Positions 16,304-33,748 of a stretch of 64,000 nucleotides of DNA are shown here, piece by piece (position 1 is the first letter of the stretch; every line of letters begins with the position of its first letter). Made by a program: the position numbers and the translations under genes. The stretch spans positions 7,076 through 71,075 of the IMG/VR virus record IMGVR_UViG_3300036851_000550; one strand, written 5' to 3'. The stretch comes from a virus. The notes under the pieces were generated by a model. It ran no database searches and was not told the DNA's origin. It worked only from the letters and a program-made list of their open reading frames with translations.

Positions 16304-16578
16304 GAGTCGGTCCCCTCCACCCGATCGTTCAGCCACTCCCGCTGGAAGCGCTCCACCCACTCGTGCAGGCCGGTCCCGGCCAGCCCGATCTCCGGGTCGT
16401 TGTACTGCAGGCGACCGGTGGGCGACGTCGAGATCTCGATGATCTTGGCGTCCGGGAAGACCGACGGCGCCAGCTCCAGCGAGTAGAGCCCGACCTGGTC
16501 GATGTAGTGCACGGAGTCGGATCCGGACGCAGGGAGCCTGCCCGGATCCTCCCCCGTACCCCCGACAGTTCCGGTCAT
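16300..16578 (-). CDS. Hypothetical protein
   Basis: ATGA overlaps. Confidence 0.55.
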   Translation of the reverse strand: MTGTVGGTGEDPGRLPASGSDSVHYIDQVGLYSLELAPSVFPDAKIIEISTSPTGRLQYNDPEIGLAGTGLHEWVERFQREWLNDRVEGTDS

Positions 16579-16808
16579 TGCGTCACCACCGGTGGATCCT
16601 CCTCGGTGAGCACGTCCGCCAGCTCGCCGAGGATCTGCACGCCGTGCAGCCGGCAGTACCGCAGCGCCGACGCGGGCGCCGTGCGGTCGTCGTAGAACAC
16701 CCGGCTGTAGATCTTCGTGCGGTTCGGCCGGTGCGTGCTGATGGCCATCCGCGAGGGCTGGCTGCAGCCGTCGCCGCCCTCAGTGAAGGCGCACCCCGTG
16801 TCCTTCAT
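16575..16808 (-). CDS. Small Cys/His hypothetical protein
   Basis: C..C..YCRLH; ATGA overlaps. Confidence 0.55.
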   Translation of the reverse strand: MKDTGCAFTEGGDGCSQPSRMAISTHRPNRTKIYSRVFYDDRTAPASALRYCRLHGVQILGELADVLTEEDPPVVTQ

Positions 16809-17164
16809 TCGTCGTCATCCCCCGGCTCGTAGCCGTCGACGAGGACCCGGATGCCGGGCGCGATCTCGTCGCCCCGCAGGACCGCCTCCACGGCTTCGGG
16901 AGTGAGGCCGGCGACCGTCAGTCGGTGCCGGAGTTCGGCGTCGTCAAGGATGCGCCGGATGAGCACCGCGGTGGGTCCCTTGGTGTTGTCGCACCAGTTG
17001 ATGATCTCGGTCCGGGCCCGGCGGAGGGCGTCCAGCTCGGCGAGCTTGTGGGCCAGCTCGTCCATCCCGCCCGATGGTCCCTCTGCATCTCGGGGGTGGA
17101 GCCAGACGTAGCGGTCGGTGTCCTTGGGGGCAACCGCTCCGGGTCCGGTGGGGGCAGTAGGCAT
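16805..17164 (-). CDS. Hypothetical protein
   Basis: GGAGA SD before ATG; GC3-rich 3' part. Confidence 0.5.
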   Translation of the reverse strand: MPTAPTGPGAVAPKDTDRYVWLHPRDAEGPSGGMDELAHKLAELDALRRARTEIINWCDNTKGPTAVLIRRILDDAELRHRLTVAGLTPEAVEAVLRGDEIAPGIRVLVDGYEPGDDDE

Positions 17165-17351
17165 GGGTCTCCGATCTTCGAGGCGTGCAACTCCTGGTAG
17201 GGCGATTCGTAGCCGCCCACGTGCGCGATGACCCCCAGCGACGCTGTGGCGACGGTGGCCACGAGGGCGAGCACGAGCGCCTGTCCGGCGTCTCTCTTCC
17301 CACGGGTCCATGTCGTCCTCCGGCGCTGCGTCGTTCGGCTGGATCTCTTGA

Positions 17352-17636
17352 TCAACCGCCGGGCGGGCGGTAGCCCGGCGGCGGGATGAGGAACGCGCGC
17401 TCGAGAGCGGCCATCCCCATCTGAAAGATCCACATGGCGTTCTTGTACTCGGCCTCGACCGTGGCGAGGTCCATCTCACTGAGCCTGGCCTCGGCAGCGG
17501 CGACCCGGCGGTCGTTCGCCTTCACGACGTCGGCCCAGCCGCGCACCACGAGGGAGGCGCAGTAGATGATCGCGCTCATCGTGTCGTCTCCCTCCTTCGT
17601 GCCCGTCTTGGTGAAGGGGTCCGGCGGCATCGTCAC
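17352..17636 (-). CDS. Hypothetical protein
   Basis: GTGA overlap; GC3-rich. Confidence 0.5.
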   Translation of the reverse strand: MTMPPDPFTKTGTKEGDDTMSAIIYCASLVVRGWADVVKANDRRVAAAEARLSEMDLATVEAEYKNAMWIFQMGMAALERAFLIPPPGYRPPGG

Positions 17637-17986
17637 GTCGTTCGCTCCTGCTCCACGATCTGGATCCACTCGTCTCGGATCTTGATGTAGCCCTGCTCGG
17701 CCATGTACGCGTCCAGGTCGTAGGAGGGCCGCATGACCTGGCAGCACTCCTCACGCCACAGACCATCTCGGAAGTTGATCCGGCCTTCGTACACGGCCGT
17801 GACCTGCTCGTCGGTCATCCGCACCCCGGGGCACTCGTCGGGCGTGCTGCCCTCCAGGCACCCGCAGACCGAGCAGCCGAACAGTCCGCCGTCGCAGAAC
17901 ATGCAGTACGGCCGGTCGCAGGTGCGGTCGTGCTTGATCGCGAAGTGACCGTTCGGATCCTTGATCTTCCGCGGCTCAGCCCGCAT
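17633..17986 (-). CDS. Cys-rich hypothetical protein
   Basis: CMFCDGGLFGCSVCGCLEGS..ECPG. Confidence 0.6.
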   Translation of the reverse strand: MRAEPRKIKDPNGHFAIKHDRTCDRPYCMFCDGGLFGCSVCGCLEGSTPDECPGVRMTDEQVTAVYEGRINFRDGLWREECCQVMRPSYDLDAYMAEQGYIKIRDEWIQIVEQERTT

Positions 17987-18701
17987 CGCGACGCTCCAGG
18001 AGAGTCCGGGCCAGGGCTTCGAACTGTCCGCGGCGTAGCTCGTTGGCCTTCTCCTGGTCGCTCTGCTCCCGCGTGGCGTTATCGGGCAGCAGCTCACGGA
18101 ACTCCAGCGGGATGCGGCCCTGCGACCAGACGTTGCGCGACTGGATCAGATCGCCGGTGGCGATGTAGCGGAAGGCGAACTGCCGGCCGCCGTGTCCGAG
18201 CGCGCCCATCCAGTGCTGCACGCCGTGCTCGCCCGGCTCCGGACCCAGCGTGTAGTGCTCGTGCTCGCAGCGGATGATCGGCGCGTCCCGGTCGCGGTGA
18301 CGCCCCGGCGCCACGCCCAGCTCCCGCCAGCGGACCTTCGTCATCCAGTAGGCGGTGGCCACCCGGACCTGGCGCAGGATCGCGTCGACGGCGCCCTGTC
18401 GGCCGTCGAACATGTGCGAGCTGGTCGAGATGCCCTCCAGGGTCAGCTGCGCGCCCCACCACCGGTGCTCGCTGCGGTAGACCGCGCACCAGCCGGCGAT
18501 GCCCAGCTCGTCGAACTCCGGGCTGTCGCGGTCCGGCGCCCGTGCCGACAGCGCGTCGACGGTGGCCTGCTCCTCGGTCAGCTCGCCGAGATTATGGATC
18601 TTCGGCACGATGGCCGGCGGCAACGCGCTGGTCTGGGCGGCCTGCTGCAGCCCGTCCGTCACGAACTTCATCTGCGCCAGGTTCAGGTGATCGAAGTTCA
18701 T
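17976..18701 (-). CDS. Hypothetical protein
   Basis: 241 aa; C-terminal GHGGRQF..SRNVWSQGRIP..F..LLPDNA looks like a recurrent phage motif. Confidence 0.6.
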   Translation of the reverse strand: MNFDHLNLAQMKFVTDGLQQAAQTSALPPAIVPKIHNLGELTEEQATVDALSARAPDRDSPEFDELGIAGWCAVYRSEHRWWGAQLTLEGISTSSHMFDGRQGAVDAILRQVRVATAYWMTKVRWRELGVAPGRHRDRDAPIIRCEHEHYTLGPEPGEHGVQHWMGALGHGGRQFAFRYIATGDLIQSRNVWSQGRIPLEFRELLPDNATREQSDQEKANELRRGQFEALARTLLERRDAG

Positions 18702-19180
18702 GCGCTCAGCACCCAGATCGGCTGCGACGGGTTGGCCTTGCGCTCCGGCAGGTCGAGCGGGACGACGACCTTCCCGCGGGTGAAGCGGGAGGCGTGCTCG
18801 TAGAGGTCGCGGATGTTGTTGCGGCCGTTGAACAGCAGGCCCGCCTCGTACGGCGAGAGCCCCAGCCCCGCTGCGGCCACGTGCCGGACGGACGCCATGT
18901 AGTTCTCGGTCGGGTGCTGGACCAGGTCACCGCTGCTCCACACCGGACGCCAGCCCATCATGATCGCGGTCTTGCCCCCGATGCAGCACGCCGTGTCGCA
19001 GACGGTGCCGGCATCGATCGCCCGCTCGGTCCGCTCCGAATCCAGCGAGGACACCGCCGTGAGATCGATGAACCAGGTGCCCTGATTCCACTCCGACGGC
19101 TCACCGCGCAGCGCGCGCTGGTACTGCTCGTAGGCCCAGTCCAGGACCTTCTGCAGCAGGCCGACGTCGATCTTGCTCAT
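18698..19180 (-). CDS. Actinophage-type hypothetical protein
   Basis: WNQGTW...CDTACCIGG...LGLS..EA..LF.G.N; AAGGAGTCA SD. Confidence 0.6.
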   Translation of the reverse strand: MSKIDVGLLQKVLDWAYEQYQRALRGEPSEWNQGTWFIDLTAVSSLDSERTERAIDAGTVCDTACCIGGKTAIMMGWRPVWSSGDLVQHPTENYMASVRHVAAAGLGLSPYEAGLLFNGRNNIRDLYEHASRFTRGKVVVPLDLPERKANPSQPIWVLSA

Positions 19181-19437
19181 GCCGTTGACTCCTTGGGTAC
19201 CTCGATGGGGTCGGGCCAGTCGCCATCGTGGCGCTGGCCGGGGAAGCAGGACGAGCACAGCTCCTTGCGCCGCGCGTCGCCGGCCTTGCCGAACGTGCTG
19301 GTCGAGCCCGCGAGGTAGCCCTTGGCTCCGCAGGCGGCCACCCAGTCGGTGAACCAGACGCCGTGCTGGTTCTCCCAGCGCGTGAAGCTGAAGGGGCGGT
19401 GGCAGGGGTAGCCGACGATCGGCGTCACGGCGCTCAT
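19177..19437 (-). CDS. Small Cys-containing hypothetical protein
   Basis: ATGA overlaps; ACG..LCSSC. Confidence 0.55.
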   Translation of the reverse strand: MSAVTPIVGYPCHRPFSFTRWENQHGVWFTDWVAACGAKGYLAGSTSTFGKAGDARRKELCSSCFPGQRHDGDWPDPIEVPKESTA

Positions 19438-19787
19438 GCAGCCAGCTCGCACAGCTCGTCGCAGAAGCACATCGGGCAGCCGGTGCGGCCACCGAGCGTG
19501 CGCGGCTCCTCGTTCGTGGTGCCCCTCATGCCGCACCGCGTGATGAAGTACAGGCCGCCCGCCTCGAGCCGAACGAACACGAGGATGCGATGCGCCGGAC
19601 GACCGACCACCAGGTAGTCCGGGGCGTCGGTGTCGGGGCCGCACGGTGCCGCCCCGGGGCGTAGGTCGAGCGGTGCGGGGGCTGGCGCAGCGGGCCGCCC
19701 GGAAGCGTCCCTGGTCGACCGTGTGGGGAGCGGTGCGACGTCACGTTCTGTGTTTCGTTCAGGTAGTGAGTTATGGTCACGGTGCAT
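19434..19787 (-). CDS. Hypothetical Cys/His protein
   Basis: AH..TRCG..CPMC; start uncertain. Confidence 0.45.
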   Translation of the reverse strand: MHRDHNSLPERNTERDVAPLPTRSTRDASGRPAAPAPAPLDLRPGAAPCGPDTDAPDYLVVGRPAHRILVFVRLEAGGLYFITRCGMRGTTNEEPRTLGGRTGCPMCFCDELCELAA

Positions 19788-19887
19788 CTCCGACGTGCCT
19801 TTCTGAACGGGACCGTTCGAGGCTGATGCAGTTGAGGGGCCGTTCCGGTGCTGGCCGGCGAGGGACGGCTCCTCAGCTATTTCTCGA

Positions 19888-20100
19888 TCACTCGGTAGCA
19901 TGACGGCGGGTCTTGACCCACTCGTCCGTGTCCTCGGGCGTGATCCGGTAGCGGCCCCGCGGGCCACTCTGTGAGCTGGGGAGCGTGCCGTTCCGCAGCG
20001 CGGTGTAGACCTCGGTCCGGCCGAATCCGGTCCGGGCCATGACCTGCTGCGGGGTCAGCCAGACCTGATCAACTCGCGCTCGGTCCTCTGTCGCATTCAC
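19888..20100 (-). CDS. Excisionase-like (HTH_17) DNA-binding protein
   Basis: WLTPQQVMARTGFGRTEVYTALRNGTLPS..GRYRI..DTDEW; start could be 20133. Confidence 0.75.
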   Translation of the reverse strand: MNATEDRARVDQVWLTPQQVMARTGFGRTEVYTALRNGTLPSSQSGPRGRYRITPEDTDEWVKTRRHATE

Positions 20101-20442
20101 GCGTTTGGTCCACCACCTTCGTCCGTCTGCCACACCTGTCCCTCGGGGGCCGGGAGGGTGTCGGTCAGTGCCGCTACGTGACGGACGGTACCGCTCGGTG
20201 TGACCCAGGTCAAGCTAGAGTCGTGTCTGGTTTGTGTGCGGGAACATAGCACCGGAAGGCCGTTTCCCTGGTGAGCCCGTGGTGGCACACCCCGATACGG
20301 TGAACTTCCTGTGAACGGTCTAGGCCAGCGAAAATCCGCATACGGGCTAATTGAAGATAGGCCAATCGGCCGCCAAAGTTCGTACTGTGCGGATTCGGTT
20401 GGCAGATGGTCGGTGCATATGCGGATGTCGTTGGCCCTGAGG

Positions 20443-20622
20443 TCAGGGCCTTCGGATCGCGCCCCACCACAGCTGCCACTGCCTGCGGGTCTCCGCCCAC
20501 CAGTGGCCGATCGTCCCGCGGGTGCGCCGGCTGTAGAGCACCGGGTTTCGTGGGCAGGAGTCCTCACGGATCGAAGATCCCCAGCCGTAGAGCGGCGGCC
20601 AGAACTCCTCGTGGCGTGTCAC
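20443..20622 (-). CDS. Small Trp-rich hypothetical protein (59 aa, not in ORF track)
   Basis: VTRHEEFWPPLYGWG...WWAETRRQWQLWWGAIRRP; AGGGGG SD. Confidence 0.4.
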   Translation of the reverse strand: MTRHEEFWPPLYGWGSSIREDSCPRNPVLYSRRTRGTIGHWWAETRRQWQLWWGAIRRP

Positions 20623-20730
20623 AGTGCGAGCCCCCTGGTCGATCGGTACCCTGCGTCATGTCGCGGTGTCCCGCCGACGTTGCGACGAACCGTGGTCGCC
20701 TACTGCAGGTGTGGTGGCCGCCCCGCCTTC

Positions 20731-20775
20731 GGGCCCGTGCTGACCTCCAGGTCCCTCCGGTGTCAGCGCGGGCCC
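20731..20775. terminator. Stem-loop
   Basis: GGGCCCGTGCTGAC...GTCAGCGCGGGCCC. Confidence 0.4.
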
Positions 20776-20913
20776 GTCGTGCTCCTAGGCTGCACCCCCG
20801 AGAGCAGCCCGGAACTCGGGACAGAGGGCGCTCCCACACTCCCCACAGTCCGTCCCGGGTCGGTAGTGCTCATGCATCTCGGCCGGGTGTCCGCACACGC
20901 ACATCTCCATGCG

Positions 20914-21153
20914 TCAGTCCTCCGACCGTGATCGCTCCTGCACTCGTACGTAGGGACGTGCACGGCGGTAGAGGGTTGACATGGGGATGCCGGTCATCTC
21001 GGCGATCTTCGGCCAGCTGTAGCCCTGATCGTGGAGGAGCGCCGCGGCCTTGCCGGTCTTCTCGGGGCCTTCCATCCGGATCATGCGCTCGCCGGCCTGG
21101 GCCTGTCGGACGAGCGCAGCGGTCAACTCGTCGGGGTCTCCGGTCAGCGACAC
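20914..21153 (-). CDS. Small HTH regulator (probably leaderless)
   Basis: SWPKIAEMTGIPMSTLYRRA HTH; TACCGT -10-like hexamer 6 nt before GTG. Confidence 0.7.
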   Translation of the reverse strand: MSLTGDPDELTAALVRQAQAGERMIRMEGPEKTGKAAALLHDQGYSWPKIAEMTGIPMSTLYRRARPYVRVQERSRSED

Positions 21154-21239
21154 GGCGGGACGGTAGCACCGGGCTTTCCAATCTGACAAAGGACGCTGTA
21201 GGGTGCGAGCCGCAACCGGCCAGCAACCAGGAGTCACCC

Positions 21240-21488
21240 ATGAGCGAGCTGCCCCACGGCGAGAGCCAGCTACCCCAGACGCGCAGGACCCGCCGCGGCG
21301 GCCTGCTCGCCCAGCCGTACACCGCCAAGCTGGTCGCGAGCCAGCTGTCGATCCGCGTGGACCAGCTGCGCGGGAACGGCGTCACCGAAGGCGAGCCCGA
21401 CTACCGCAGCAACTCCGAGAGGGTCGCGGACAACGACCTGGCGGATCTCCTCGAGACCGCAGCCGAAGAGCTGCGCGCCGTCAGCTGA
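21240..21488 (+). CDS. Hypothetical protein, first gene of plus-strand arm
   Basis: AGGAGTCA SD; TAGGGT -10-like element upstream. Confidence 0.6.
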   Translation: MSELPHGESQLPQTRRTRRGGLLAQPYTAKLVASQLSIRVDQLRGNGVTEGEPDYRSNSERVADNDLADLLETAAEELRAVS

Positions 21489-21769
21489 TGGACATGCGGG
21501 ACCACGCTCGCGACCTGCACGCCGAGCGTTCCAATCGGGTGCCCGTGTCGCTGGGCCGCGTCCTGCTGCTGACCGTCATCGGACTGCAGGCCATCCTCTT
21601 CGTCGCGCTCGAGATCTGGCTCACCGTCAACCTGTCGCTCGGCACCGCGCTGATCGTCGGGGTGATCGTGACCGCGCTCTGGATCGTCTGGCTGCGGATG
21701 GTCGAGTTCGACCGCTTCACGGGGACCAACGCGGCCCCACCCACCCAACGTTTCAAGAGGCCTGAGTAG
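21488..21769 (+). CDS. Two-TM membrane protein
   Basis: Two hydrophobic helices; TGATG overlap. Confidence 0.6.
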   Translation: MDMRDHARDLHAERSNRVPVSLGRVLLLTVIGLQAILFVALEIWLTVNLSLGTALIVGVIVTALWIVWLRMVEFDRFTGTNAAPPTQRFKRPE

Positions 21770-21979
21770 ATGAAGCAGCACCCCAAGCACAAGGGCGTCC
21801 CGCAGCACTACGGACGGGGCAAGCCGTCGAAGGGCGGGCGCGTCATCCGCACGACGCACACACCGGGGATGAAGAAGGCCGAGACGACCAGCGAGTGGGG
21901 CTGCTTCAAGGTCCTGGCGCAGGGTGGAGCGGTGGTGTTCGCCTGCGCGTGGCTGGCTCTTCGAGCTGTCCGACGCTGA
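21770..21979 (+). CDS. Small basic protein with C-terminal TM
   Basis: Lys/Arg-rich N-terminus, hydrophobic end. Confidence 0.5.
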   Translation: MKQHPKHKGVPQHYGRGKPSKGGRVIRTTHTPGMKKAETTSEWGCFKVLAQGGAVVFACAWLALRAVRR

Positions 21980-21990
21980 CCTAGGAGGCC

Positions 21991-22479
21991 GTGGTGCCCT
22001 ACCCGGACAGGGAGGACGACGGCCAGGACAAGAACAAGTCGGAGGAAGAGCTCGACGCGGAAGCCCTGACGATCCTTCACAAGATCAAGCGTGGGGAGAG
22101 TCGTCGGGACGTGGCGCTCACTCTCGGTATATCCCAGGCGACCCTGGTTCGGCGCCTCCAGAGGGCGATCTTGAACCCAGTCCCGAAGTCAGTTCAGCGG
22201 GAGATCGAGGCCGAGCGGCTCGATGATCTAACTCTCCGTGTTCATGAGGCTCTGGAAGCCGGAGTCGCCACGACCGCGGACCTGGCTCTCCTTCTTCGGG
22301 AGGCTCGGGCTCTCTCGGCCGCACGAACCAAGCTCCGGGGACTCGCCGAGGTCACATCCTCGAACGACCCGGACGAGGACGACCTGAACGGTCTTCCCGC
22401 CGGCCTGAAGGCAGCAGCCGAGGAGGCCGAGCGGCGCATCGCCGAGGAGGGGAGGCGGCTCCGTGGTGAGGCTTCGTGA
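21991..22479 (+). CDS. Terminase small subunit-like HTH protein (second copy)
   Basis: N-term HTH SRRDVALTLGISQATLVRRL, E.ERLD.L and RTKLRGL patterns of actinophage TerS; directly upstream of TerL-like gene; AGGAGG SD. Confidence 0.65.
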   Translation: MVPYPDREDDGQDKNKSEEELDAEALTILHKIKRGESRRDVALTLGISQATLVRRLQRAILNPVPKSVQREIEAERLDDLTLRVHEALEAGVATTADLALLLREARALSAARTKLRGLAEVTSSNDPDEDDLNGLPAGLKAAAEEAERRIAEEGRRLRGEAS

Positions 22480-22519
22480 GCTGTGGGACACCGCGCGGGC
22501 GGTGAGTAGGAGGGACGAC

Positions 22520-24067
22520 GTGGCTGCACCGGCTGGCGAGTACGTGCCGTCGATCTACGCCCCGGAGACCTTCGGCCTGGACGATTACCTGGCCCGGCTG
22601 AACAATCCGCTGCTCGATCATGCGCACTACCGGCGCCTCTACTGCCAGTACGACCCGCTGCTCTTCGCGCTGATCTACCTCGAGCGGCACCTGATCAGCG
22701 ACGAGACCGGTGGCAAGGACATCCACCTGTCCCAGCTCCACCTCGACATGGCCGAGCACGCGAAGGCGATGGTCCGCAACGACTGCGGCCCGGCCGAGGA
22801 GCGCCATGTTTTCGTCGCCGCGCGCGACTCCGGCAAGTCGACGTGGGCCTGCCAGCCGATCATCGTGCTCTGGGCGATGGCCTTCAGGCACAAGGAAGTG
22901 ATCGCCTGCTTCACCGCGAACGACACCGCCGCGGGGAAGCTGATGGACTGCGTGCGCACCGAGCTGTCGGAGAACCAGCGCCTGCGCCACGACTTCCCGG
23001 AGCTCTGCCGGCCGGCGAAGAACAGCGCGAACCGCACCCGGGCCGACACCCAGAACATGTACATCGCGGCGTCCGGCGTGACGCTGATGGCCTACGGGAT
23101 CGACTCGAACCAGCTCGGTACGAAGATCGAGAACAAGCGGCCGAAGCTCATCATCTTCGAGGACGTGGAGCCCGACGAGGGCAACTACTCGGACGGGCAG
23201 AAGGCCGCGCGGCTCTCCACGATCCGGCAGGCGATCCTCCCGATGAACGATCGAGCGGTCGTCTGGTGGGTCGGCACGACAACGATGTTCGGCTCGGCCG
23301 TGCACGATCTCGTGCGCACGGCGCTCGGGGATCCGGTCGAGTGGGTGGTCGAGGACGACTGGCAGATCCACTACTACCCGCCGATCGTGATGCTCCCGGA
23401 CGGCACCGAGGAGAGCTGCTGGCCGGCGAAGTGGCCGATCAGCTACCTGCAGAAGATCCGCCACCGGCGCACGTTCGCGCTGAACTTCGAGAACAACCCG
23501 CGCTCGGTGGAGAACGGGCTGTGGACCCCGACCGACATCGTGGTCGTGCCGGACGCCCCGATGGGGGATCAGGTGCTGGCCATCGACCCCGGGGTCACCA
23601 GCCGGCAGACCTCCGACCCGACCGGCATGGCCGTCATCACCTGGGGCGCCCGCCTGGTGGTCGAGTACGCCGAGGAGCTGCGGCTGCAGCCCGACCAGCT
23701 GAAGGACATCACGCTGCGGCTGCTGCACGAGAACCCGCGGCTGAAAACGATCCTGATCGAGACGAACAACGGCGGCGAGGCCTGGTCCGACATCATCTGG
23801 GCCGCGCTCCCGCCCGGTGTCGAGCTGATCGACGTGTGGCACTCCAAGAACAAGAACGGCCGGTTCGAGCGGCTGCTCGACTTCTACCAGGAGCGCAAGG
23901 TCGTGCACGCCGCGGTGCACACAACGCTCGTCCGGCAGATGCTGATGTACCCCAAGGTGAAGAACGACGACGTGATCGACAGCGTCGCGATCGGCGTCGA
24001 GCACCAGCTCGAACACCTCTGGGGGAAGCGGTCCCGGCGCACGATCCAGCGTCGGCGGACGAAGTGA
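22520..24067 (+). CDS. terL: Terminase large subunit, second unrelated copy with no adjacent portal
   Basis: DPLLFALIYL, Walker A AARDSGKST, RPKLIIFEDVE, WVGTT; RNase H-like nuclease motifs LAIDPG..SD, LIETNNGG, NDDVIDSV. Confidence 0.82.
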   Translation: MAAPAGEYVPSIYAPETFGLDDYLARLNNPLLDHAHYRRLYCQYDPLLFALIYLERHLISDETGGKDIHLSQLHLDMAEHAKAMVRNDCGPAEERHVFVAARDSGKSTWACQPIIVLWAMAFRHKEVIACFTANDTAAGKLMDCVRTELSENQRLRHDFPELCRPAKNSANRTRADTQNMYIAASGVTLMAYGIDSNQLGTKIENKRPKLIIFEDVEPDEGNYSDGQKAARLSTIRQAILPMNDRAVVWWVGTTTMFGSAVHDLVRTALGDPVEWVVEDDWQIHYYPPIVMLPDGTEESCWPAKWPISYLQKIRHRRTFALNFENNPRSVENGLWTPTDIVVVPDAPMGDQVLAIDPGVTSRQTSDPTGMAVITWGARLVVEYAEELRLQPDQLKDITLRLLHENPRLKTILIETNNGGEAWSDIIWAALPPGVELIDVWHSKNKNGRFERLLDFYQERKVVHAAVHTTLVRQMLMYPKVKNDDVIDSVAIGVEHQLEHLWGKRSRRTIQRRRTK

Positions 24068-24158
24068 AGGGCCGCACCGGGCACGGCGCGACCCTTCACG
24101 GGGCGACCGGTGAGGGGACACCGGTCTGGTCTGGTGCTCGCTCGGAAGCGGCCAGGCG

Positions 24159-24368
24159 TTACTTCGTCAGCTGGGTGATGCGGCCCTTCGTCACGCCGAG
24201 CATGGCCGCGACCTCCGTCTTGCTGTGGGTTTCGAGCAGTTCGGACACCGCCTCCCTGATGACCCTGGCGACATCCGAGATGTCCTGGTTCAGCTCGCCG
24301 TGGACGGCGCGAGCCCGCTCGATCCGCTCTGCCGGGTCGGCGATCGCCCGCAGCTCGTCGGTGTTCAT
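24159..24368 (-). CDS. Small HTH regulator (leaderless)
   Basis: SKTEVAAMLGVTKGRITQL HTH; TATACT 6 nt before ATG. Confidence 0.75.
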   Translation of the reverse strand: MNTDELRAIADPAERIERARAVHGELNQDISDVARVIREAVSELLETHSKTEVAAMLGVTKGRITQLTK

Positions 24369-24441
24369 GTCCCGAGTATACCCCGCATTGAGCAGGGCAA
24401 AAGGGTTGCGGCGGCAGGTGTACCCCGCCTATACTCAGAGC
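24369..24441. promoter_or_regulatory. Back-to-back leaderless promoters with repeated operator-like sites
   Basis: TATACT on each strand (24375-24380 minus, 24430-24435 plus), each 6 nt from an ATG; TTGCGG 18 nt before the plus -10; direct repeat GTRTACCCCGC x2. Confidence 0.7.
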
Positions 24442-24834
24442 ATGGAAGCAGCGAAGGCCCAGCTCATCGCCGAGATCGGCCCCGTGGTCAACCCGATGGG
24501 CGAGCCCACGATCGAGGTCATCCCGACCCTCATCGTCGGCCCGGTCGGCGACTTCTGCGGCGCCTGCTGGGAGACCGACGCGTGCACCGTGGTGCTCCGC
24601 TGGGTCGCGCCGATCGACGGTGTGGAGCGCGAGTTCGCCGTCACGCTGCACCGCGGCTGCGCGGCCGAGTACATCCGGCGCAGCGCGCTCTACGTGCCCG
24701 AGCTGGTCGTCGAGCTCGGTCTGTACCAGGGCGTCGACGTCGACGTCGACACCGACGAGCACCGCCTGAACGACCCGAGCTACGACCAGGACGAGTTCGT
24801 CGCCATGTACCCGCCGTGCGAGCAGGAGGACTGA
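24442..24834 (+). CDS. Hypothetical protein
   Basis: CGAC..HRGC; leaderless start. Confidence 0.6.
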   Translation: MEAAKAQLIAEIGPVVNPMGEPTIEVIPTLIVGPVGDFCGACWETDACTVVLRWVAPIDGVEREFAVTLHRGCAAEYIRRSALYVPELVVELGLYQGVDVDVDTDEHRLNDPSYDQDEFVAMYPPCEQED

Positions 24835-24839
24835 TCGAG

Positions 24840-25103
24840 ATGCGTATGTGGCTGCTGACCGTGGGCGAGTACGCGGACGAGATGGCGCTCGGTGTGGTGC
24901 GCGCGAGCGACATCGCCGAGGCGCGCCGGGTCGCGGGCGAGATGACGATCAACCGCGTCAGCCGTGGCGAGTCGGACGACATGTGCTACGTCTCCGTGAC
25001 CGAGGTCGAGGACCTGACGCCGCAGGACGAGCAGCACGAGAGCGCGGCGGACTTCGCGGAGTTCCGCGAGCAGCACTACGTCGAGACCGGCGAGGAGCTG
25101 TGA
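24840..25103 (+). CDS. Hypothetical protein
   Basis: AGGAGG SD; GC3-rich. Confidence 0.55.
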   Translation: MRMWLLTVGEYADEMALGVVRASDIAEARRVAGEMTINRVSRGESDDMCYVSVTEVEDLTPQDEQHESAADFAEFREQHYVETGEEL

Positions 25104-25282
25104 TGGTCGGCGGCCGGATCTCGAAGAACGACCTGGAGATGCTGGCCACCGACCTCTCCGAGGCGATCGAGCAGGCCCGCGAGGAGTACGCCCCGGACCT
25201 GCCGGACGTCGGCCCGCTGGAAGTGCTCGCGGCGCTGCCGGAGTTCCTGGCCGCGCTGACCGCCCAAGCTGAGGGGAGTTGA
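25103..25282 (+). CDS. Hypothetical protein
   Basis: TGATG overlap; GAGGAG SD. Confidence 0.55.
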   Translation: MVGGRISKNDLEMLATDLSEAIEQAREEYAPDLPDVGPLEVLAALPEFLAALTAQAEGS

Positions 25283-25284
25283 TC

Positions 25285-25779
25285 ATGAGCGAGCAGACCA
25301 CGATCGCGCGGAAGTGTCCGACCTGCCCCACCGTGCAGACGGTGGTCGTCGACGCCGCGGCTCACGAGCGCTGGCAGGCCGGCGAGTACATCCAGAACGC
25401 GTTCCCGCTGCTGACCGCCAACCAGCGCGAGATCCTCATGACCGGCATCTGCCCGAAATGCTGGGACGCGATGCGCGAGGCGACCGACCCGGACGCCGAT
25501 GCCGAGTGCAGCGGCGTGTGCCTCACCGGTGCCGACGTCGGTGTGCCGTTCGACGGCATCGCCTACGCGCACCCGGACTGCCCGCTGCACGGCGAGAGCG
25601 ATGGCGACATCGAGGTGGCGCCCGGCGAGCACCCCGAGTACGACAACGCCGCCGCGGCCTCCGAGCGCGCCGCCGAGGAGTCCGCCTACGACGCGTGGGC
25701 GATGCAGGACTACGACCGTGACCAGATGGCCAGCATGTACGACGGCCTGGGGCCCGAGGACGTGGAGGAGCAGCGATGA
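25285..25779 (+). CDS. Zn-binding hypothetical protein
   Basis: CPTC..WQAGEYIQNAFPLLTANQREILMTGICPKCWD; C..C..HPDCPLH. Confidence 0.65.
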   Translation: MSEQTTIARKCPTCPTVQTVVVDAAAHERWQAGEYIQNAFPLLTANQREILMTGICPKCWDAMREATDPDADAECSGVCLTGADVGVPFDGIAYAHPDCPLHGESDGDIEVAPGEHPEYDNAAAASERAAEESAYDAWAMQDYDRDQMASMYDGLGPEDVEEQR

Positions 25780-26054
25780 TCGAAACGCTCGCCTGCACCG
25801 CGCTGATCATCGCGATCACGACCTACACGATCATGAACTGGGAAGAGGTCATCGAGCGCGCTGTGCAGCAGCACGCCGTCGAGGTCGCGCACACCGTCGA
25901 CCTCTGGTGCGAGGTGTTCGACCTCGTGATGGTGCTGGCCAACCGGTACCAGCAGTGGTTGGAGAAGGTCGGCGGTCTCCCGGTCGAGCAGACCGACCGC
26001 ACCGCGGCCGTCGTCATGAAGCTGCGCCGCCGGCTCGTGGACGTGACCCGATGA
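25776..26054 (+). CDS. Hypothetical membrane protein
   Basis: N-terminal hydrophobic segment; ATGA overlap. Confidence 0.55.
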   Translation: MIETLACTALIIAITTYTIMNWEEVIERAVQQHAVEVAHTVDLWCEVFDLVMVLANRYQQWLEKVGGLPVEQTDRTAAVVMKLRRRLVDVTR

Positions 26055-26269
26055 CGGGAGAGCTGCTGGTCGCCGGGCTGATCGTCGTGGCGGTGGGCTA
26101 CGCCATCGTCAGCCTGCTGCGGCTCGCACGGTTCAGCTGGAAGCGCAAGACCCGGAAGTTCTGCCGGGTCCGTCTCACGCACGCGGGCCCGCGGATCGTC
26201 TCCCTGTACGTCGACCTGTGGCTGTGGAAGGCCCAGATCCTGCCCCGGAAGAGGAAGGCACGCCGATGA
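26051..26269 (+). CDS. Small membrane protein
   Basis: TM followed by basic tail. Confidence 0.55.
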   Translation: MTGELLVAGLIVVAVGYAIVSLLRLARFSWKRKTRKFCRVRLTHAGPRIVSLYVDLWLWKAQILPRKRKARR

Positions 26270-26607
26270 CGATCAAGGACATGGGTCCGAGGCTGCGGGA
26301 GGTACTCGCCGCCGGGCGCGCCGCAGAGGCCCAGCACGGGCAGGTCGCGCCGCCGTCACGGCCGGAGCCTCCGGCGCCGTACGTCCCCGGTGTCGCCCGA
26401 CCGGCCCCCGAGGCCGCCGCCATCGCCGACGCGGAGGACGCCGCCGCGCAGGCCCGCCTCTACATCGAGCACGCCCCGGCGGGTGCAGGCGGGGTGGCGC
26501 AGGCGAAGGCCACACTCGCCGTAGCGGCCAGCATCGACGCCCTCCGTGAGGCGCTCACGGATCGCCTGGACCTGATCGCCGACCAGATCTCCGAGTTGAA
26601 GGACTGA
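26266..26607 (+). CDS. Hypothetical protein
   Basis: ATGA overlap. Confidence 0.55.
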   Translation: MTIKDMGPRLREVLAAGRAAEAQHGQVAPPSRPEPPAPYVPGVARPAPEAAAIADAEDAAAQARLYIEHAPAGAGGVAQAKATLAVAASIDALREALTDRLDLIADQISELKD

Positions 26608-26608
26608 A

Positions 26609-26911
26609 ATGATCTCTGCGAACACCGCTCCCGCCCCTGCCCCCACGACCGCTTGGAAGCGCTGCACGTGGTGGTGCGGCGACGACGAGTGCCCGGCGGC
26701 CTGCCCGAACCAGTTCGCCCCCGCGGCCGTCGTCGACGCTGCTCCCATCCCCGCTGCGGCTCCCCAGTGTCCGAGCTGCGACGAGCCGATCCGCGACGTC
26801 GCCGGCTACGTCCGGCTGCTCGCCTACCTGGCCGCCATCGCCGACGGGGCCATGACGGCCCACCAGGCCGCAGCCCTGCTGCTCGGCGAGCCTCCGGACG
26901 CAGCCGCATGA
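26609..26911 (+). CDS. Cys-rich hypothetical protein
   Basis: CTWWC..C..C, CPSC. Confidence 0.55.
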   Translation: MISANTAPAPAPTTAWKRCTWWCGDDECPAACPNQFAPAAVVDAAPIPAAAPQCPSCDEPIRDVAGYVRLLAYLAAIADGAMTAHQAAALLLGEPPDAAA

Positions 26912-27132
26912 CACCGCGGGAGCGCAAGGACCAGGCGCTGGAAGAGGTCACCTCACAGCTGGAGGAGCCCGACCGCTGGGCCGTCTCGCTGATGTACGAG
27001 AGCGTGCCGGTCGCGGTCTACCCGAACCTGTCGGAGGCCGCTGCTATGGGTAAGGCCGCCGAGCTCCGCATGCGCTACCCGACCCACGACGTGCAGCGGT
27101 ACCGGCGCACGGTGATCTGGGAGGCAGCGTGA
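26908..27132 (+). CDS. Hypothetical protein
   Basis: ATGA overlap. Confidence 0.55.
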   Translation: MTPRERKDQALEEVTSQLEEPDRWAVSLMYESVPVAVYPNLSEAAAMGKAAELRMRYPTHDVQRYRRTVIWEAA

Positions 27133-27446
27133 TCCAGCGCGAGACGATCGAGGACGCGCTCGAGAACGACCGCTGCGGCATCTGCCACTCAGTCGATCAC
27201 TTCCGCGAGGACTGCCCGCTGTTCACCCAGGGGGACCTGGTCGGCGTCGCCCGGGACCAGAACGGCGTGGACACCGCGACCTGCGAATGCGGCTTCGTCG
27301 AGCTGATCACGGGGGACGGGAACTACCTGTTCGTCCCGACCGGGCTCTACCGCTTCGACGTCGACGCCGAGCACTCGATGGTGTCGCAGGTCCACCAGTA
27401 CCGGTACATCTGCCCGGACTGCTGGGCGAAGCTGCCGGAGGAGTAG
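27129..27446 (+). CDS. Zn-knuckle-containing hypothetical protein
   Basis: CGICHSVDHFREDCP (CCHC), CEC, CPDC. Confidence 0.6.
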   Translation: MIQRETIEDALENDRCGICHSVDHFREDCPLFTQGDLVGVARDQNGVDTATCECGFVELITGDGNYLFVPTGLYRFDVDAEHSMVSQVHQYRYICPDCWAKLPEE

Positions 27447-27449
27447 GAC

Positions 27450-27800
27450 ATGCCTGCAGGAGCTGCGGTCTTCTTCATCATCACGGTGGTGGCCGGCGCG
27501 GTCATCGCGCTGAAGGCGCTGGCCGCGGCGTTCCGGGCGTTCTGGGCCGGCGTGGTCGAGATCGCAACGCACGTGGCCACCGTCATCGGCGTGGTGATCT
27601 GCGTGCTCGGCGGGTTGGCCACGCTGGTCGCCCTGCTCTACGTGGCCGGCACGTTCGCCGAGCGGCTGTACCGGCTGCGCCTGGGCGCGCGGCACCAGCG
27701 CGACCAGCTCGCGATGGAGTGGGACCAGATGATCATGAAGAACGACTCGCCGGCCAGCATCGGTTGGGACGGCCCATTCCCGGAGGACTTCGATGGCTGA
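27450..27800 (+). CDS. Membrane protein
   Basis: Two hydrophobic helices. Confidence 0.55.
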   Translation: MPAGAAVFFIITVVAGAVIALKALAAAFRAFWAGVVEIATHVATVIGVVICVLGGLATLVALLYVAGTFAERLYRLRLGARHQRDQLAMEWDQMIMKNDSPASIGWDGPFPEDFDG

Positions 27801-28128
27801 CGAGTACTACCTGGTTCGGCGCGACGACACGGACGGGTCAGTGATCGAGCTGACGCCGCTGCCGGCAGACACGATCATCGGACCAGTGCCGCACGACCTG
27901 CGCGTGCGCGCGAACGCCGACCCGACGCTGCGGGCGATCCGGTTCGGCACCGACGACGAGGCCCGCGAGGCCTACGACCTGTTGATCAACACGGTGGCCA
28001 CGTTGACCACCGAGAACAGCAAGCTGCGGCCGATGGAGCAGCGGGCCCGGTTCGCCGCCGTCAACCCGCTGTCCTCGGAGGTCGAGCGCGCCACCGGGCT
28101 GGCGATCCTGGGGAGGCCGTCAGCATGA
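27793..28128 (+). CDS. Hypothetical protein
   Basis: GGAGG SD; overlap. Confidence 0.55.
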   Translation: MADEYYLVRRDDTDGSVIELTPLPADTIIGPVPHDLRVRANADPTLRAIRFGTDDEAREAYDLLINTVATLTTENSKLRPMEQRARFAAVNPLSSEVERATGLAILGRPSA

Positions 28129-28478
28129 GCGAGCTGATGTTCGTGCGGCTGCACGAAATCAACGACTGGGAGGGCGAGTCCTGGAGCTGGTGGTTGCAGC
28201 TGACCGGGAACGAAGCGGAGATCAACAAGCTCGAGGAGATCCTCGACGTCTGGGCCCCAGACTGGTCCCCCGACGACCCGCCGTTCTTGCTGCACCGCAG
28301 CGACGTCGAGCCGGAGGTCGTTGTCGACAAGCTGGTGCAGTACGCCGCGGTGAACTACTACCCCCTGCACAACAAGATCACCGGTGTACTCACCTGCCCC
28401 GACGACCTGGGCGTGAACCCTGAGCTGCTCTACAAGGGCGCGATCAGGACCTGCTTCCGGAGGCCGTCCGATGGCTGA
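28125..28478 (+). CDS. Phage hypothetical protein
   Basis: [16 protein letters not shown]...LYKG pattern. Confidence 0.6.
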
Positions 28479-28788
28479 GTCCCTGCACGTCACGCACATC
28501 GGCCGCTCGTGGGACGGCACCTCGCTGGAGGACGAGTGCCCGTGCCCGAAGGCGCCGTGCGGCCTGGTCAGCTCGGACGCCGTCGACCCGGCGTGCGATC
28601 AGCACCCGTCGGAGCGCCGCAAGACCATGCGGCAGATCCACACCGCAGCGGTCTGCCCCGGCCCGCGGGCCATCGTCCGCTACCAGGTCGACGCCCGCTG
28701 GTTCTTCGACGACCGCGAGAAGGCACGCCGGTTCGCCGAGGCGCTGCTGCTGATGGGGGCCGACTCGGCGACGGCGGGGCGGCTATGA
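28471..28788 (+). CDS. Cys/His hypothetical protein
   Basis: [19 protein letters not shown]. Confidence 0.6.
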
Positions 28789-29090
28789 GCTGTCTCGACT
28801 ACGAGGTGGAGGCGGTGCTGGCCGCATGGGCTGCGCTGAAGGCCCGCAAGTCCCCCCGCCCTGTCGACGGCCGCCCGGTCGGCGCCGAGCTGCGGGCCGC
28901 GCTCGTCCTGCTGGAGGACAAGTGGGAGATGACGTCCGGGCACCGCGCGCTGGAGCGACTGGCCGCCGCGGCGGTCGAGCTGCGCGACGCCGCGTCGTCG
29001 CAGGACTCCGCGCGCGTCACCCGGGCGTACACGGAGTTCATCACGACCCTGGAGGCGATCGACGCCATCGACGCCTGGCAGCGGACATGA
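28785..29090 (+). CDS. Hypothetical protein
   Basis: ATGA overlap. Confidence 0.5.
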
Positions 29091-29266
29091 CGTACGAGGG
29101 CGGCTGGGCATGGGTCTGCGAGTCCTGCGAGGTCGGCGGTGTATCCGCCGATCGGCCGCCGGTGTGCTGGTGCTGCGGCGCGCCGGCCACCCCCGTGACC
29201 GCCCGGACGGCGGTCGACCAGCTCCGGCAGTCGATCGCCGGATACGAGGTGGTGCGGCCGTGGTGA
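29087..29266 (+). CDS. Small Zn-ribbon protein
   Basis: CESC..CWCC. Confidence 0.5.
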   Translation: MTYEGGWAWVCESCEVGGVSADRPPVCWCCGAPATPVTARTAVDQLRQSIAGYEVVRPW

Positions 29267-29430
29267 CGACGTGGTTCCGGTGGTTCTTCCTGTGCTGGGC
29301 GGTGTGGATCGCGCTGGTCAGCTGGTACTACGGGCTGGTCCCGACCGAGGGCATGGGGCTGTTCGCGCTCGTCCTCATCATCGTTTTCCTGAAGATCGCC
29401 CAGACGAGAGCGGGGCCACGTCATGGCTGA
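29263..29430 (+). CDS. Small membrane protein
   Basis: Two hydrophobic segments. Confidence 0.5.
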   Translation: MTTWFRWFFLCWAVWIALVSWYYGLVPTEGMGLFALVLIIVFLKIAQTRAGPRHG

Positions 29431-29695
29431 GACCACCTGCTCGCGGGGCTGCACCTGCACCCGGTGCCAGCGCAACCGCACCGCCTTCGCCCAGGTGATG
29501 GCCGAGCGAGCGGAGGCGAACTCTCAGCTGGCCGCGGCGCTGAACACCTGGCGCTGGTGTTGGGACTGTGCCGCCACGAAGCAGACCTGCGACGAGGCCC
29601 GGATGGAGGACCCGCCGCGGAAGTGCTGCCCGGACTGCCGACACCGGAACGCCAAGGACGCCCGGGTCAACTGGCTGACCACGGAGGACGGATGA
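29423..29695 (+). CDS. Cys-rich hypothetical protein
   Basis: CSRGCTCTRC, CWDC, CCPDCRH. Confidence 0.55.
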   Translation: MAETTCSRGCTCTRCQRNRTAFAQVMAERAEANSQLAAALNTWRWCWDCAATKQTCDEARMEDPPRKCCPDCRHRNAKDARVNWLTTEDG

Positions 29696-29856
29696 CCCTG
29701 CGCGAGTGCGACGAGACCTTCTTCTGGTTCCTCACCCTGCTGACCGACGAGGGCGAGCTGAACCTGTGGCCGTGCCGGAAGTGCGGGGCGATGGTGCACG
29801 GCGGGCTGCGTGGCCGACACCGGAAGTTCCACGAGGAGCTGGAGGAGAAGAGCTGA
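29692..29856 (+). CDS. Small C2H2-like protein
   Basis: CRKCGAMV..H.KFH. Confidence 0.5.
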   Translation: MTLRECDETFFWFLTLLTDEGELNLWPCRKCGAMVHGGLRGRHRKFHEELEEKS

Positions 29857-29858
29857 TC

Positions 29859-30275
29859 ATGGGACAGACGATCGACTACCTGGTGACCATCGAGACCGTC
29901 TCGTGCTGCAGCTGCGGCGTGCTGTTCGGGATGCCGGAGCAGATGCTGCGGGCTCGGCGCGATGACGGGCAGGAGTTCTTCTGCCCGTCCGGCCACCGGC
30001 AGCACTTCACCGAGACCGAGGCGGCCCGGTTGCGGAAGAAGCTCGAGAGCACCGAGCGCAGCCTGAAGTACGTCCAGACCTCCCGGGACGCCGCACGCGA
30101 CCAGCTGCAGGCGGCCGAGCGATCGCGTCGGGCGCTGAAGGGCGTGGTCACCCGGCAGCGCAACCGCGTAGCCGCGGGGGTGTGCCCGGTCGACAACTGC
30201 CGCCGCCACTTCAACGACCTCGGCCGGCACATGACCACCGAGCATCCGGACTACGCGCACGAGGAGTCGACGTGA
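29859..30275 (+). CDS. Zn-binding coiled-coil phage protein
   Basis: CCSCGVLFGMP..FFCPSGH, coiled coil, GVCP..C.RHF.DL.RHM..H. Confidence 0.65.
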   Translation: MGQTIDYLVTIETVSCCSCGVLFGMPEQMLRARRDDGQEFFCPSGHRQHFTETEAARLRKKLESTERSLKYVQTSRDAARDQLQAAERSRRALKGVVTRQRNRVAAGVCPVDNCRRHFNDLGRHMTTEHPDYAHEEST

Positions 30276-30826
30276 CCGAGAACTGCGGCCAGGGCCACGA
30301 CACCACGAAGATCGGATGTAAGCACGCTGCCGCTGCGCGCGAGCTGGAGCAGCTGCGCGCGCAGATCTCCGAGATCGTCGAGAAGCTGCTGCTCACCCCG
30401 GATAGGCCGCTCATGCCCTGGCCGGAGCTGCCGCAGGACCTGGCGCTGATCTGCGTCCAGCTGGACGGCTACGACGCCATGGTGAAGGCGCTGGGCAACG
30501 AGCTCGACCGGATGCGCAACAGCCACCGTGCGGTGACGGCCGGTCTGTTCCGCGAGCTGTCGAAGCTGCGCAATGAGGTGGCCACCGACCCGCACGACGA
30601 CGCTCGCGACTACCGCACGCTCGCCGACGAGGTGATCAAGTGGTTCAACCCGGCGGACGACGACGTCGCCGAGGTGGCCATCCACATGGACGCCGTGAAG
30701 GCGGCGGCCCGGTACATCGAATCGCTGGCCTGCCGGTGCACGCCGGAGGCCGTCCACTACGACGACGAGCCGTGCGCACGCTGCGCCGCGCTCGGTCGCG
30801 TCGCCGACCGGCCCGAGGAGCGCTGA
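30272..30826 (+). CDS. Hypothetical protein
   Basis: GTGA overlap; CRC..CARC. Confidence 0.55.
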   Translation: MTENCGQGHDTTKIGCKHAAAARELEQLRAQISEIVEKLLLTPDRPLMPWPELPQDLALICVQLDGYDAMVKALGNELDRMRNSHRAVTAGLFRELSKLRNEVATDPHDDARDYRTLADEVIKWFNPADDDVAEVAIHMDAVKAAARYIESLACRCTPEAVHYDDEPCARCAALGRVADRPEER

Positions 30827-30987
30827 TGCTGATCCTCGGCTTCCTGTTCGCGGGAATGACGATGGTGGCCTGCCTGGTCACCGTGGCGATGCGGGGCGCG
30901 ATGGGCCCGGACGAGCTGTTGGCCTGGGTCATCGTGGCCGCGGTGTTCCCGGTCAGCGGCGCGCTGGCCGGACGAGGGAGGGACTGA
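30826..30987 (+). CDS. Small membrane protein
   Basis: Two hydrophobic segments. Confidence 0.5.
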   Translation: MLILGFLFAGMTMVACLVTVAMRGAMGPDELLAWVIVAAVFPVSGALAGRGRD

Positions 30988-31848: not shown

Positions 31849-31850
31849 CC

Positions 31851-32891: not shown

Positions 32892-32904
32892 TACCCTAGT
32901 TATC

Positions 32905-33408: not shown

Positions 33409-33429
33409 GAAGATCAACTAAGGAGTCAC

Positions 33430-33651: not shown

Positions 33652-33664
33652 CCCCGGACACGCC

Positions 33665-33710: not shown

Positions 33711-33748
33711 GCTGCCGGGGAGCGGCGTCTGTCTACTTCGGCCGGAGG

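Follow-up and report, generated by a model that had tools for sequence, protein, structure and literature searches.

Why should a phage that encodes a complete set of packaging genes carry a second, unrelated terminase for which its genome holds no portal? The question is raised by a stretch of 64,000 nucleotides (in the following the window, i.e., bases 7076–71075 of the 71,075-bp soil virus record IMGVR_UViG_3300036851_000550), in which genes for a small and a large terminase subunit, here named TerS2 and TerL2, lie side by side at 21991–24067. A tailed phage is commonly assumed to possess a single terminase tied to a single portal, and here a second, unrelated, and apparently active pair occurs portal-less in at least five phage genomes. 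Our analysis identified the locus as a conserved multi-gene accessory module of a soil actinophage lineage, consisting of a membrane protein, TerS2, TerL2, and a helix-turn-helix (HTH) protein. New are the conserved module itself, its position next to the integrase in temperate relatives, its absence from one complete relative, and the lack, in the portal-less forms, of the C-terminal aromatic tail seen in portal-linked relatives.

Two terminases in one genome

The gene map, obtained by codon-based calls and scans against PHROG and Pfam, places the two terminases on opposite strands, with 37.7 kb between the end of TerL2 and TerL1:

21991–22479, plus strand: TerS2, 162 amino acids (aa), matching HTH_50 with an E-value of 2e-4 (below the Pfam cut-off); best coding frame at this place
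22463–24067, plus strand: TerL2, open reading frame (ORF) of 534 aa, likely start at GTG 22520 (515 aa) with a Shine–Dalgarno sequence AGGAGG ahead
54679–55950, minus strand: major capsid protein, in the head block together with a protease
60022–61404, minus strand: portal (phrog_12, 2e-94), the sole portal gene of the genome
61818–63410, minus strand: TerL1 (phrog_19179, 2e-72; phrog_9, 2e-31), next to the portal
63415–63966, minus strand: probable TerS1 (Terminase_7, E 6e-5, below the cut-off), adjoining the physical right end of the record

TerL2 was assigned to phrog_38 ("terminase large subunit", E 1.3e-52), and its codon use is normal with a GC content at third codon positions (GC3) of 0.95. 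The deduced amino acid sequence harbors the motifs AARDSGKST, RPKLIIFEDVE, AIDPG..SD, IETNNGG, and NDDVID. An AlphaFold2 model based on 25 sequences reached a predicted local distance difference test (pLDDT) value of 86.9, and the best Foldseek matches were full-length large terminases of PhiV-1, T4, D6E, Sf6, and HK97 (E 1e-17 to 1e-10), the model aligning with solved TerLs across about 460–580 columns. The ATPase domain, modeled with high confidence, matches those of T4 gp17 and P74-26, while the C-terminal fold matches terminase nuclease domains including those of human cytomegalovirus UL89 and T4. In the family alignments of 25 and about 217 rows, K125 of the Walker A sequence GKST is invariant. 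The Walker B motif reads E233-D234-V-E236, with D234 and E236 invariant, and the nuclease acidic residues D375, D385, E433, D503, and D506 are conserved. Judged from the PHROG match, the predicted fold, and the motifs, TerL2 is a large terminase complete with both domains, and it counts as such by sequence and fold, not by gene context.

The sub-clade of the window's TerL2 keeps 52 of the 64 columns whose conservation among the other family members reaches at least 93%, including the Walker A lysine, D234, E236, and the five nuclease acidic residues. At position 233, the remaining rows of the family alignment (100%) and the 12 next-closest relatives all have D, E being found only in the six sequences closest to that of the window. 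This exchange (D233E) is conservative but unusual. As a mark of the portal-less state it was ruled out, since other portal-less TerL2s have D at this position; those outside the window's sub-clade retain DD.E or DE.E. A further exchange, P120 to A, was detected in the window's TerL2 only.

TerS2 lies directly upstream of and co-oriented with TerL2 (TerS2 ends at 22479, TerL2 starts at 22463 or 22520). Its AlphaFold2 model (6 sequences, pLDDT 74) predicts an N-terminal HTH (helices at residues 18–33, 38–45, and 49–61), a hairpin of long helices at 66–90 and 95–119, and a C-terminal part with a disordered linker followed by a helix at 137–161. Homologs were found in five protein clusters (60–99% identity), with 84 invariant columns among six sequences. 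Scans of the window's TerS2 itself against Pfam and PHROG revealed HTH matches but no curated TerS model, and a sequence search of the PDB with the TerS2 family profile likewise returned HTH-domain matches only. The profile retrieved 55 proteins from 1.84 billion representatives, 41 of which were scanned, the other 14 being longer multi-stretch or partial matches. Among these 41, phrog_645 was detected in 21, phrog_309 in 2, and phrog_7067 and Pfam Sf6_terminase in 1 each; phrog_309 and phrog_7067 are TerS families, while phrog_645 is labeled "Rnase E". This label looks wrong, since its members occupy the small-terminase position upstream of TerL2's family. Of the 140 loci with enough upstream sequence, 75 have a match to the profile in the ORF immediately preceding TerL, and the family is also located directly upstream of TerL in G405, G406, G407, contig C94 of genome bin G219 (G219:C94), and L147, our designations for related sequences. 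On account of its position, family, and architecture, we regard TerS2 as the cognate small subunit of TerL2.

Neither within the TerS2–TerL2 block nor after TerL2 was a portal or capsid gene found, and the portal type linked to TerL2's family occurs nowhere in the 71-kb genome. TerL1 and TerL2 share no significant similarity (best BLASTP E-value 0.89). These results bear out the preliminary description of the stretch, which had reported a second TerS/TerL pair with the motifs quoted above, in an intact ORF of normal codon use, on the opposite strand and about 38 kb from the head genes, unrelated to the main terminase, followed by no portal or capsid, and with a Walker B sequence FED unusual for the family.

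The layout was also recovered in a second assembly made with a different assembler, whose 67,589-base contig shows 0 differences over window positions 16500–36499 at even depth. The stretch is contained in one public run, a soil metagenome, which may be the record's own source; among the public runs, none of RNA is listed as containing it. The contig of the second assembly starts exactly at the window's last base (64000), and because both assemblies stop at the same base, a fixed physical end beside TerS1/TerL1 is suggested. As a side observation, TerL1 and TerS1 abut in the window, while their homologs are separated by about 3 kb in G404 (34241–37242) and about 1.8 kb in G407 (64618–66378).

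A recurrent accessory module

The genes around the pair were mapped as follows:

19888–20133, minus strand: Xis/MerR-type HTH gene (HTH_17, 1e-8; phrog_66, 7e-9) at the edge of the divergent region, serving as syntenic marker
20134–21239, no strand: poor-coding stretch of about 1.1 kb according to codon scores, with only a 107-aa HTH ORF inside
20914–21237, minus strand: this resolvase-type HTH ORF of 107 aa, with HTH_23 and HTH_7 matches
21240–21488, plus strand: gene of 82 aa opening the plus-strand block, based on gene call and codon score
21488–21769, plus strand: small membrane protein, 93 aa, hydrophobic at residues 18–74 (Kyte–Doolittle), C-terminus RFKRPE
21770–21979, plus strand: small protein of 69 aa with one C-terminal hydrophobic stretch
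24159–24368, minus strand: small HTH protein of 69 aa (phrog_686, 7.5e-5), last gene of the module and convergent with TerL2

Relatives of TerL1 were found in 80 loci, and the 30 located on contigs of at least 30 kb were searched for TerL2. Four of them carry it, namely G406 (42,200 bp), G407 (66,853 bp, CheckV 97%), G410 (68,738 bp, 100% complete), and G412 (91% complete). Among loci with a TerL1 of at least 59% identity the proportion is four of seven, as opposed to none of 23 at 48–54%; the remaining three of the seven are two half-genome fragments and the complete genome G413. The TerL1 homologs in the relatives revealed 60–69% identity. The genome of G407 harbors a TerL1-type gene at 62987–64618 (60%), a portal (58%), and a capsid gene (53%), with a TerL2-type gene at 27575–29170 on the other strand, and G406 also possesses both terminase types (TerL1-type, 60%); both are laid out as in the window. 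The module was additionally identified in fragment G405 and in G219:C94, a contig of a Streptosporangiaceae genome bin. In all, it is known from at least seven elements including the window, in five of which a canonical terminase was demonstrated. A cognate portal was found neither in the window genome, G405, G406, G407, and G219:C94 nor in the fetched parts of G410 and G412. The portal-based relatives G402–G404 are without TerL2, but these are fragments only.

Common to the relatives is the gene order of a membrane protein, a TerS2-family ORF abutting TerL2, and a small HTH gene. A homolog of the 21488–21769 product is encoded immediately ahead of TerL2 in G407 (36% over 69 aa, E 4e-9), and the membrane proteins at the same position in G405, G406, G219:C94, G410, and G412 end with RF[KRV][RK]P[DN]. 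For the HTH protein of 24159–24368, homologs at 79–80% identity were found, and the convergent gene that follows TerL2 in G406 shows 30% identity to it (E 7e-6). By equal contig sizes, homologs of TerS2 and TerL2 share contigs of 3,107, 17,213, and 44,691 bases, and a homolog of this HTH protein is likewise on the 17,213-base contig. The closest TerL2 homologs are P0002 (85%) and P0003 (73%); a scan of IMG/VR with clade-specific patterns for TerL2s like these two returned no match. The product of 21240–21488 has no PHROG or Pfam match and weakly resembles the gene at the same place in G407 (25895–26224; 30% over 50 aa, E 0.006). For that of 21770–21979 no homolog was detected in the relatives, this gene belonging to the window's version of the module only. 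Here, too, the preliminary description had read the surroundings correctly: hydrophobic stretches are present in both genes that it had called membrane proteins (21488–21769 and 21770–21979, Kyte–Doolittle), and the HTH genes that it had placed at the flanks are those of 20914–21237 and 24159–24368, both on the minus strand.

In four elements, an integrase is located beside the module, of the serine type in G405 and G410 and of the tyrosine type in G219:C94 and G412, and homologs of the HTH gene at 19888–20133 lie upstream of the integrase in the latter two. The place of the integrase in these four relatives corresponds to the poor-coding stretch 20134–21239 of the window. No match to the serine or tyrosine integrases of the relatives was found in the window genome, and the window phage has probably lost its integrase.

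The TerL2s of the seven elements are 31–90% identical to one another, with frames and motifs intact. The motifs are unchanged in G405, G406, and G407, while in G410 and G412 AKTT and DE.E occur as variants and E433 is replaced by D. The window's TerL2 is 38–44% identical to those of G406/G407, as compared with 53–75% for TerL1, portal, and capsid. G410 and G412 share 90% (TerL2) and 79% (TerS2) identity, yet their integrases are of different types and their neighboring genes are only 30–45% alike; TerS2–TerL2 behaves as an exchangeable cassette. Sharp mosaicism around the module was also observed between G405 and G410, where a 111-aa gene upstream of it (G405 22836–23171; G410, L283 8976–9311) is 87% identical, as against 36% for the TerL2s and 50% for the serine integrases.

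For more distant homologs of TerL2 (37–44% identity), we analyzed 162 loci from IMG/VR and metagenomes, some of them duplicates between the collections. Among the matches listed, 141 of the 162 have a portal within 2.5 kb downstream; in the other 21, the available sequence ends too early (16 loci), a portal follows 3–7 kb on (3 loci), or scaffold/capsid genes are located downstream (2 loci). None of these listed loci contains a relative of TerL1, the window's portal, or its major capsid protein, and the identity of TerL2 to any portal-linked TerL in this set is at most 44%. FastTree grouped the TerL2s of the window, G405, G406, and G407 in one clade of 19 rows with a support of 100 and no portal-linked member. 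A quick IQ-TREE analysis (LG+C20) of 46 rows chosen from 235 recovered the same clade with 17 rows, a Shimodaira–Hasegawa-like approximate likelihood ratio test (SH-aLRT) value of 100, and a stem of 0.30.

Members of the portal-less clade differ from the portal-linked TerLs at their C-terminus. While Y, F, or W occurs within the last 8 residues of 113 of 125 unique portal-linked TerLs, this applies to only 2 of the 19 sequences in the clade. In passages on TerL's C-terminal tail, Hilbert et al. (2017, PMC5389665) give several lines of evidence that portal binding resides there, and they propose that portal binding stops cutting by the nuclease.

The ratio of nonsynonymous to synonymous substitution rates (dN/dS), computed for the one pair whose DNA allowed it (G405 and G219:C94), ranged from 0.16 in the membrane protein to 0.48 in the HTH protein, with TerL2 at 0.26 and TerS2 at 0.41. 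In this pair, the module is under purifying selection. With both terminase types in four further records and these ratios of 0.16–0.48, the earlier view that the pair is retained and intact is upheld. The trans-acting nuclease proposed in the preliminary description is a candidate function, for which end generation, cutting of host or competitor DNA, and pac-type transduction had been suggested as possible uses.

Possible roles of the pair

The reading we favor, with somewhat less than even probability, is that of a capsid-uncoupled, TerS-guided, ATP-dependent nuclease used in conflicts between mobile elements. The HTH of TerS2 would bind a specific DNA site and recruit TerL2, which, with neither a portal neighbor nor the C-terminal aromatic tail, would be unrestrained by a portal and might act as a free ATP-dependent endonuclease or translocase. 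Its targets would most likely be the sites at which competing phages, or capsid-forming satellites, with a terminase of TerL2's family initiate packaging, and cutting there uncoupled from a capsid would wreck the concatemers of the rival, making the pair an exclusion or counter-parasite weapon. Expression would be expected at an early stage or, in temperate relatives, from the prophage, perhaps jointly with that of the membrane protein, while the phages carrying the module would package their own DNA with the unrelated TerS1–TerL1–portal set at the genome end. Use against rivals appears most likely because the module is accessory and cassette-like, diverges fast, adjoins integration genes, and is paired with a membrane protein. 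A more detailed version, in our view possible though rather doubtful, is that of a domesticated portal-independent terminase acting as a restriction weapon on pac- or direct terminal repeat (DTR)-type sites of rivals, with the membrane and HTH proteins controlling the pair and the cassette being exchanged among temperate and lytic soil actinophages.

Several points weigh against a nuclease in conflict. The reading as defense draws on position and analogy, and a search of PADLOC-DB 2.0 revealed no model matching TerL2 or the membrane proteins and only weak, HTH-level matches for TerS2 and the HTH protein; this null result lowers the case for a known system, not for a function in conflict. A plain nuclease needs no ATPase motifs, and their retention fits a real packaging motor equally well. 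D233E, at an otherwise invariant Walker B position and limited to the window's sub-clade, might weaken the ATPase. The codon use of TerS2 is atypical, with negative codon scores mid-gene and a GC3 below that of TerL2 in the window (0.75/0.95) as well as in G406 (0.76/0.84) and G407 (0.71/0.82), which could mean that terS2 contains a DNA signal, as known from pac phages, and that the enzyme cuts the genome of its own phage. The sequences counted in the tail statistic are related, so that the loss may have been a single event, and binding of the tail to the portal is assumed for TerL2's family by analogy. Finally, the TerL2s of G410 and G412 form a long-branched pair in a neighboring assemblage outside the 19-member clade (FastTree only), so that the history is not one simple capture and may include replacement of the pair.

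A second packaging specificity we consider unlikely but the best of the alternatives. TerS2–TerL2 would here be adapted to the phage's own portal and use a second start site, probably in or near terS2, in pac/headful or prophage-end packaging, with transduction of flanking host DNA in temperate relatives. The pair retains a proper TerS partner and the complete set of ATPase and nuclease motifs that a functioning motor has, the atypical codons of terS2 are as expected with a pac-like signal inside, the prophage form would place the module at the border by the integrase, and the portal-less clade and the lineage of TerL1 and its portal have co-existed long enough to adapt. However, the complete genome G413 does without the module, the C-terminal aromatic tail of the portal-linked relatives is absent, and the common end of both assemblies by TerS1/TerL1, together with the lack of a terminal overlap in the record, fits canonical fixed ends. 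To our knowledge, no phage with two unrelated terminases working on one portal has been described, and in the open-access literature we found nothing comparable to a second or orphan terminase.

With a clearly lower probability, the pair could serve DNA metabolism by setting a site-specific double-strand break for recombination-dependent replication or by processing replication or excision intermediates. Its place at the head of the plus-strand block by the divergent regulatory region, opposite the replication genes, and the integration/excision genes adjoining the module in relatives would agree with such a role, but G413 manages without it, the pair moves as a cassette among phages whose neighboring genes differ, and we found no precedent in the open-access literature.

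About as improbable is a relic or selfish passenger that remained after recombination with a phage or satellite bearing the other type of terminase, be it neutral, decaying, or spreading as a cassette. The absence of the module from the complete relative G413, its cassette-like exchange, E at the Walker B position D233 and A at P120 in the window, and the odd codon use of terS2 could be understood in this way. This is countered by the intact frames and motifs in seven elements despite the divergence of their TerL2s, the dN/dS ratios across the module in the one tested pair, the invariant columns of TerS2, and a gene order in which the membrane and HTH genes keep their places. The preliminary description had asked whether the block is chimeric or decaying. 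Since the second assembly is identical across 20 kb, the layout recurs in four other records, and the module is under purifying selection in the one tested pair, both an artefact of assembly and a fragment in decay are ruled out for the TerS2–TerL2 block.

Even less probable appears capsid piracy, in which procapsids formed by a co-infecting phage or satellite, with a portal matching TerL2's family, would be filled by TerS2–TerL2 with the DNA of the phage that encodes the pair. The nearest characterized relatives of TerL2 are indeed the main terminases of Streptomyces BR- and Wentworth-type phages (genomes of 68–82 kb) and of capsid-forming satellites, and the motor motifs are intact; on the other hand, the conserved C-terminal tail is lost, no portal-linked TerL among the matches listed exceeds the 44% identity given above, and the phage's genome would have to contain a recognition site, with co-infections occurring frequently. 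An assembly chimera of two phages, conceivable for a metagenome record whose only public run may be its own source, is practically negligible given the identical, single contig of an independent assembler with even depth over both block borders and the same layout in four other records. An integrated satellite was ruled out, as head genes are missing from the block and related phages carry the module in synteny.

Should TerS2–TerL2 prove to be a weapon, it would represent a new class of phage-borne defense or counter-parasite system derived from a packaging motor, and a nuclease aimed at the packaging sites of rivals would be a new principle in phage–phage and phage–satellite conflicts of actinomycetes as well as a new kind of programmable, TerS-guided DNA cutter. 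A second packaging route would change the view of packaging specificity and transduction in the phages carrying the module. Either way, such extra copies can mislead both the TerL-based typing of packaging strategies and virome phylogenies built on TerL.

Genome setting and comparison with known systems

The genome is organized in four blocks:

window 1.2–19.6 kb, minus strand: replication block with HNH nuclease, RuvC-like resolvase, exonuclease, primase-helicase, and PolA
far left of the genome, plus strand: small genes
window 21.2–33.7 kb, plus strand: block of mostly small genes
from the right end, minus strand: lysis, tail, and head block

The GC content of the window is about 0.69. No tRNA genes were found in it with ARAGORN, no Rfam family matched, and between 19 and 25.5 kb no repeats, promoter-like, or terminator-like sites beyond chance were detected. 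Known phages are only distantly related (best TerL1 match 41%, best PolA match 39%); a comparison with the phage collection resulted in no near DNA match, and a search of IMG/VR via PolA in no close relatives. Identity of the window phage with the helper phage MindFlayer was ruled out, the latter being a 131-kb BE2 phage with 49.5% GC.

Some further features were noticed outside the module. Among the small plus-strand genes in the first 1–7.1 kb of the genome, a repeat of 70–120 bp occurs in at least seven copies that are 80–92% alike; window positions 1–750 are the right edge of this zone, and the second assembly breaks inside it. Since ARAGORN detects none, tRNAs were ruled out as the nature of these repeats. 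In the replication block, distant from both terminases, the HNH endonuclease and the RuvC-like resolvase are encoded at window positions 3769–4404 and 5305–5889, both on the minus strand. An ORF of 1173 aa at 47303–50824 (minus strand), flanked by tail genes and a tape-measure-like gene (45302–47083), begins with about 150 ordinary-looking residues, followed by about 900 residues of extreme low complexity rich in Arg, Thr, Pro, and Gly, the GC content reaching 0.80 over 48–50 kb.

With regard to known systems, the locus resembles the prophage defense genes of cluster N mycobacteriophages, which, according to the passages on these genes in PMC7542560, are located in the central variable region and often consist of pairs of a cytoplasmic and a membrane protein. 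Both are central and integration-adjacent, combine cytoplasmic with small membrane proteins, and vary in content between related phages. They differ in that there is no sequence relation and no terminase-like protein among the cluster N genes in those passages, and in that the part of the module described here in defense is putative.

A second parallel is offered by the Staphylococcus aureus pathogenicity islands (SaPI) and phage-inducible chromosomal islands (PICI), where, as outlined in the part of PMC10690885 dealing with them, a satellite TerS or the protein Rpp retargets the helper terminase. Here as there, packaging-specificity proteins would be weapons between mobile elements. In those islands, a small subunit or adaptor is added to the TerL of the helper, and none is a complete second TerS–TerL pair inside a phage.

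Closest by sequence are phages and satellites in which the same TerL family serves as main terminase. The TerLs of KimJongPhill and Zuko (Streptomyces, cluster BR), of Wentworth, Yara, and Gibson, and of Microbacterium phage OscarSo are 34–38% identical to TerL2 over 85–90% and, for the KimJongPhill, Zuko, Wentworth-type, and OscarSo proteins, share its PHROG (phrog_38) and motif set; they are the sole terminase of each phage, with the portal next to it in Wentworth, whereas TerL2 is a second, portal-less, and tail-less one. The capsid-forming Streptomyces satellites MiniFlayer, Mulchroom, and Ando, which are treated in sections of deCarvalho et al. (2023, PMC10690885) and Kabuu et al. (2026, PMC13587820), also encode a TerL of this family (35–37% identity), which is the sole terminase in MiniFlayer and Mulchroom and is followed by a portal in MiniFlayer. 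Besides TerS and TerL, the gene set of such satellites comprises portal, scaffold, and capsid but lacks replication functions, while here a full phage with head genes of its own has just TerS and TerL of that type: the block is without portal and capsid and lies inside a 71-kb genome with a polymerase, a primase-helicase, and a full virion module, which sets it apart from a capsid-forming satellite. The TerL family shared with the MiniFlayer-type satellites shows that the terminase module moves between phages and their parasites.

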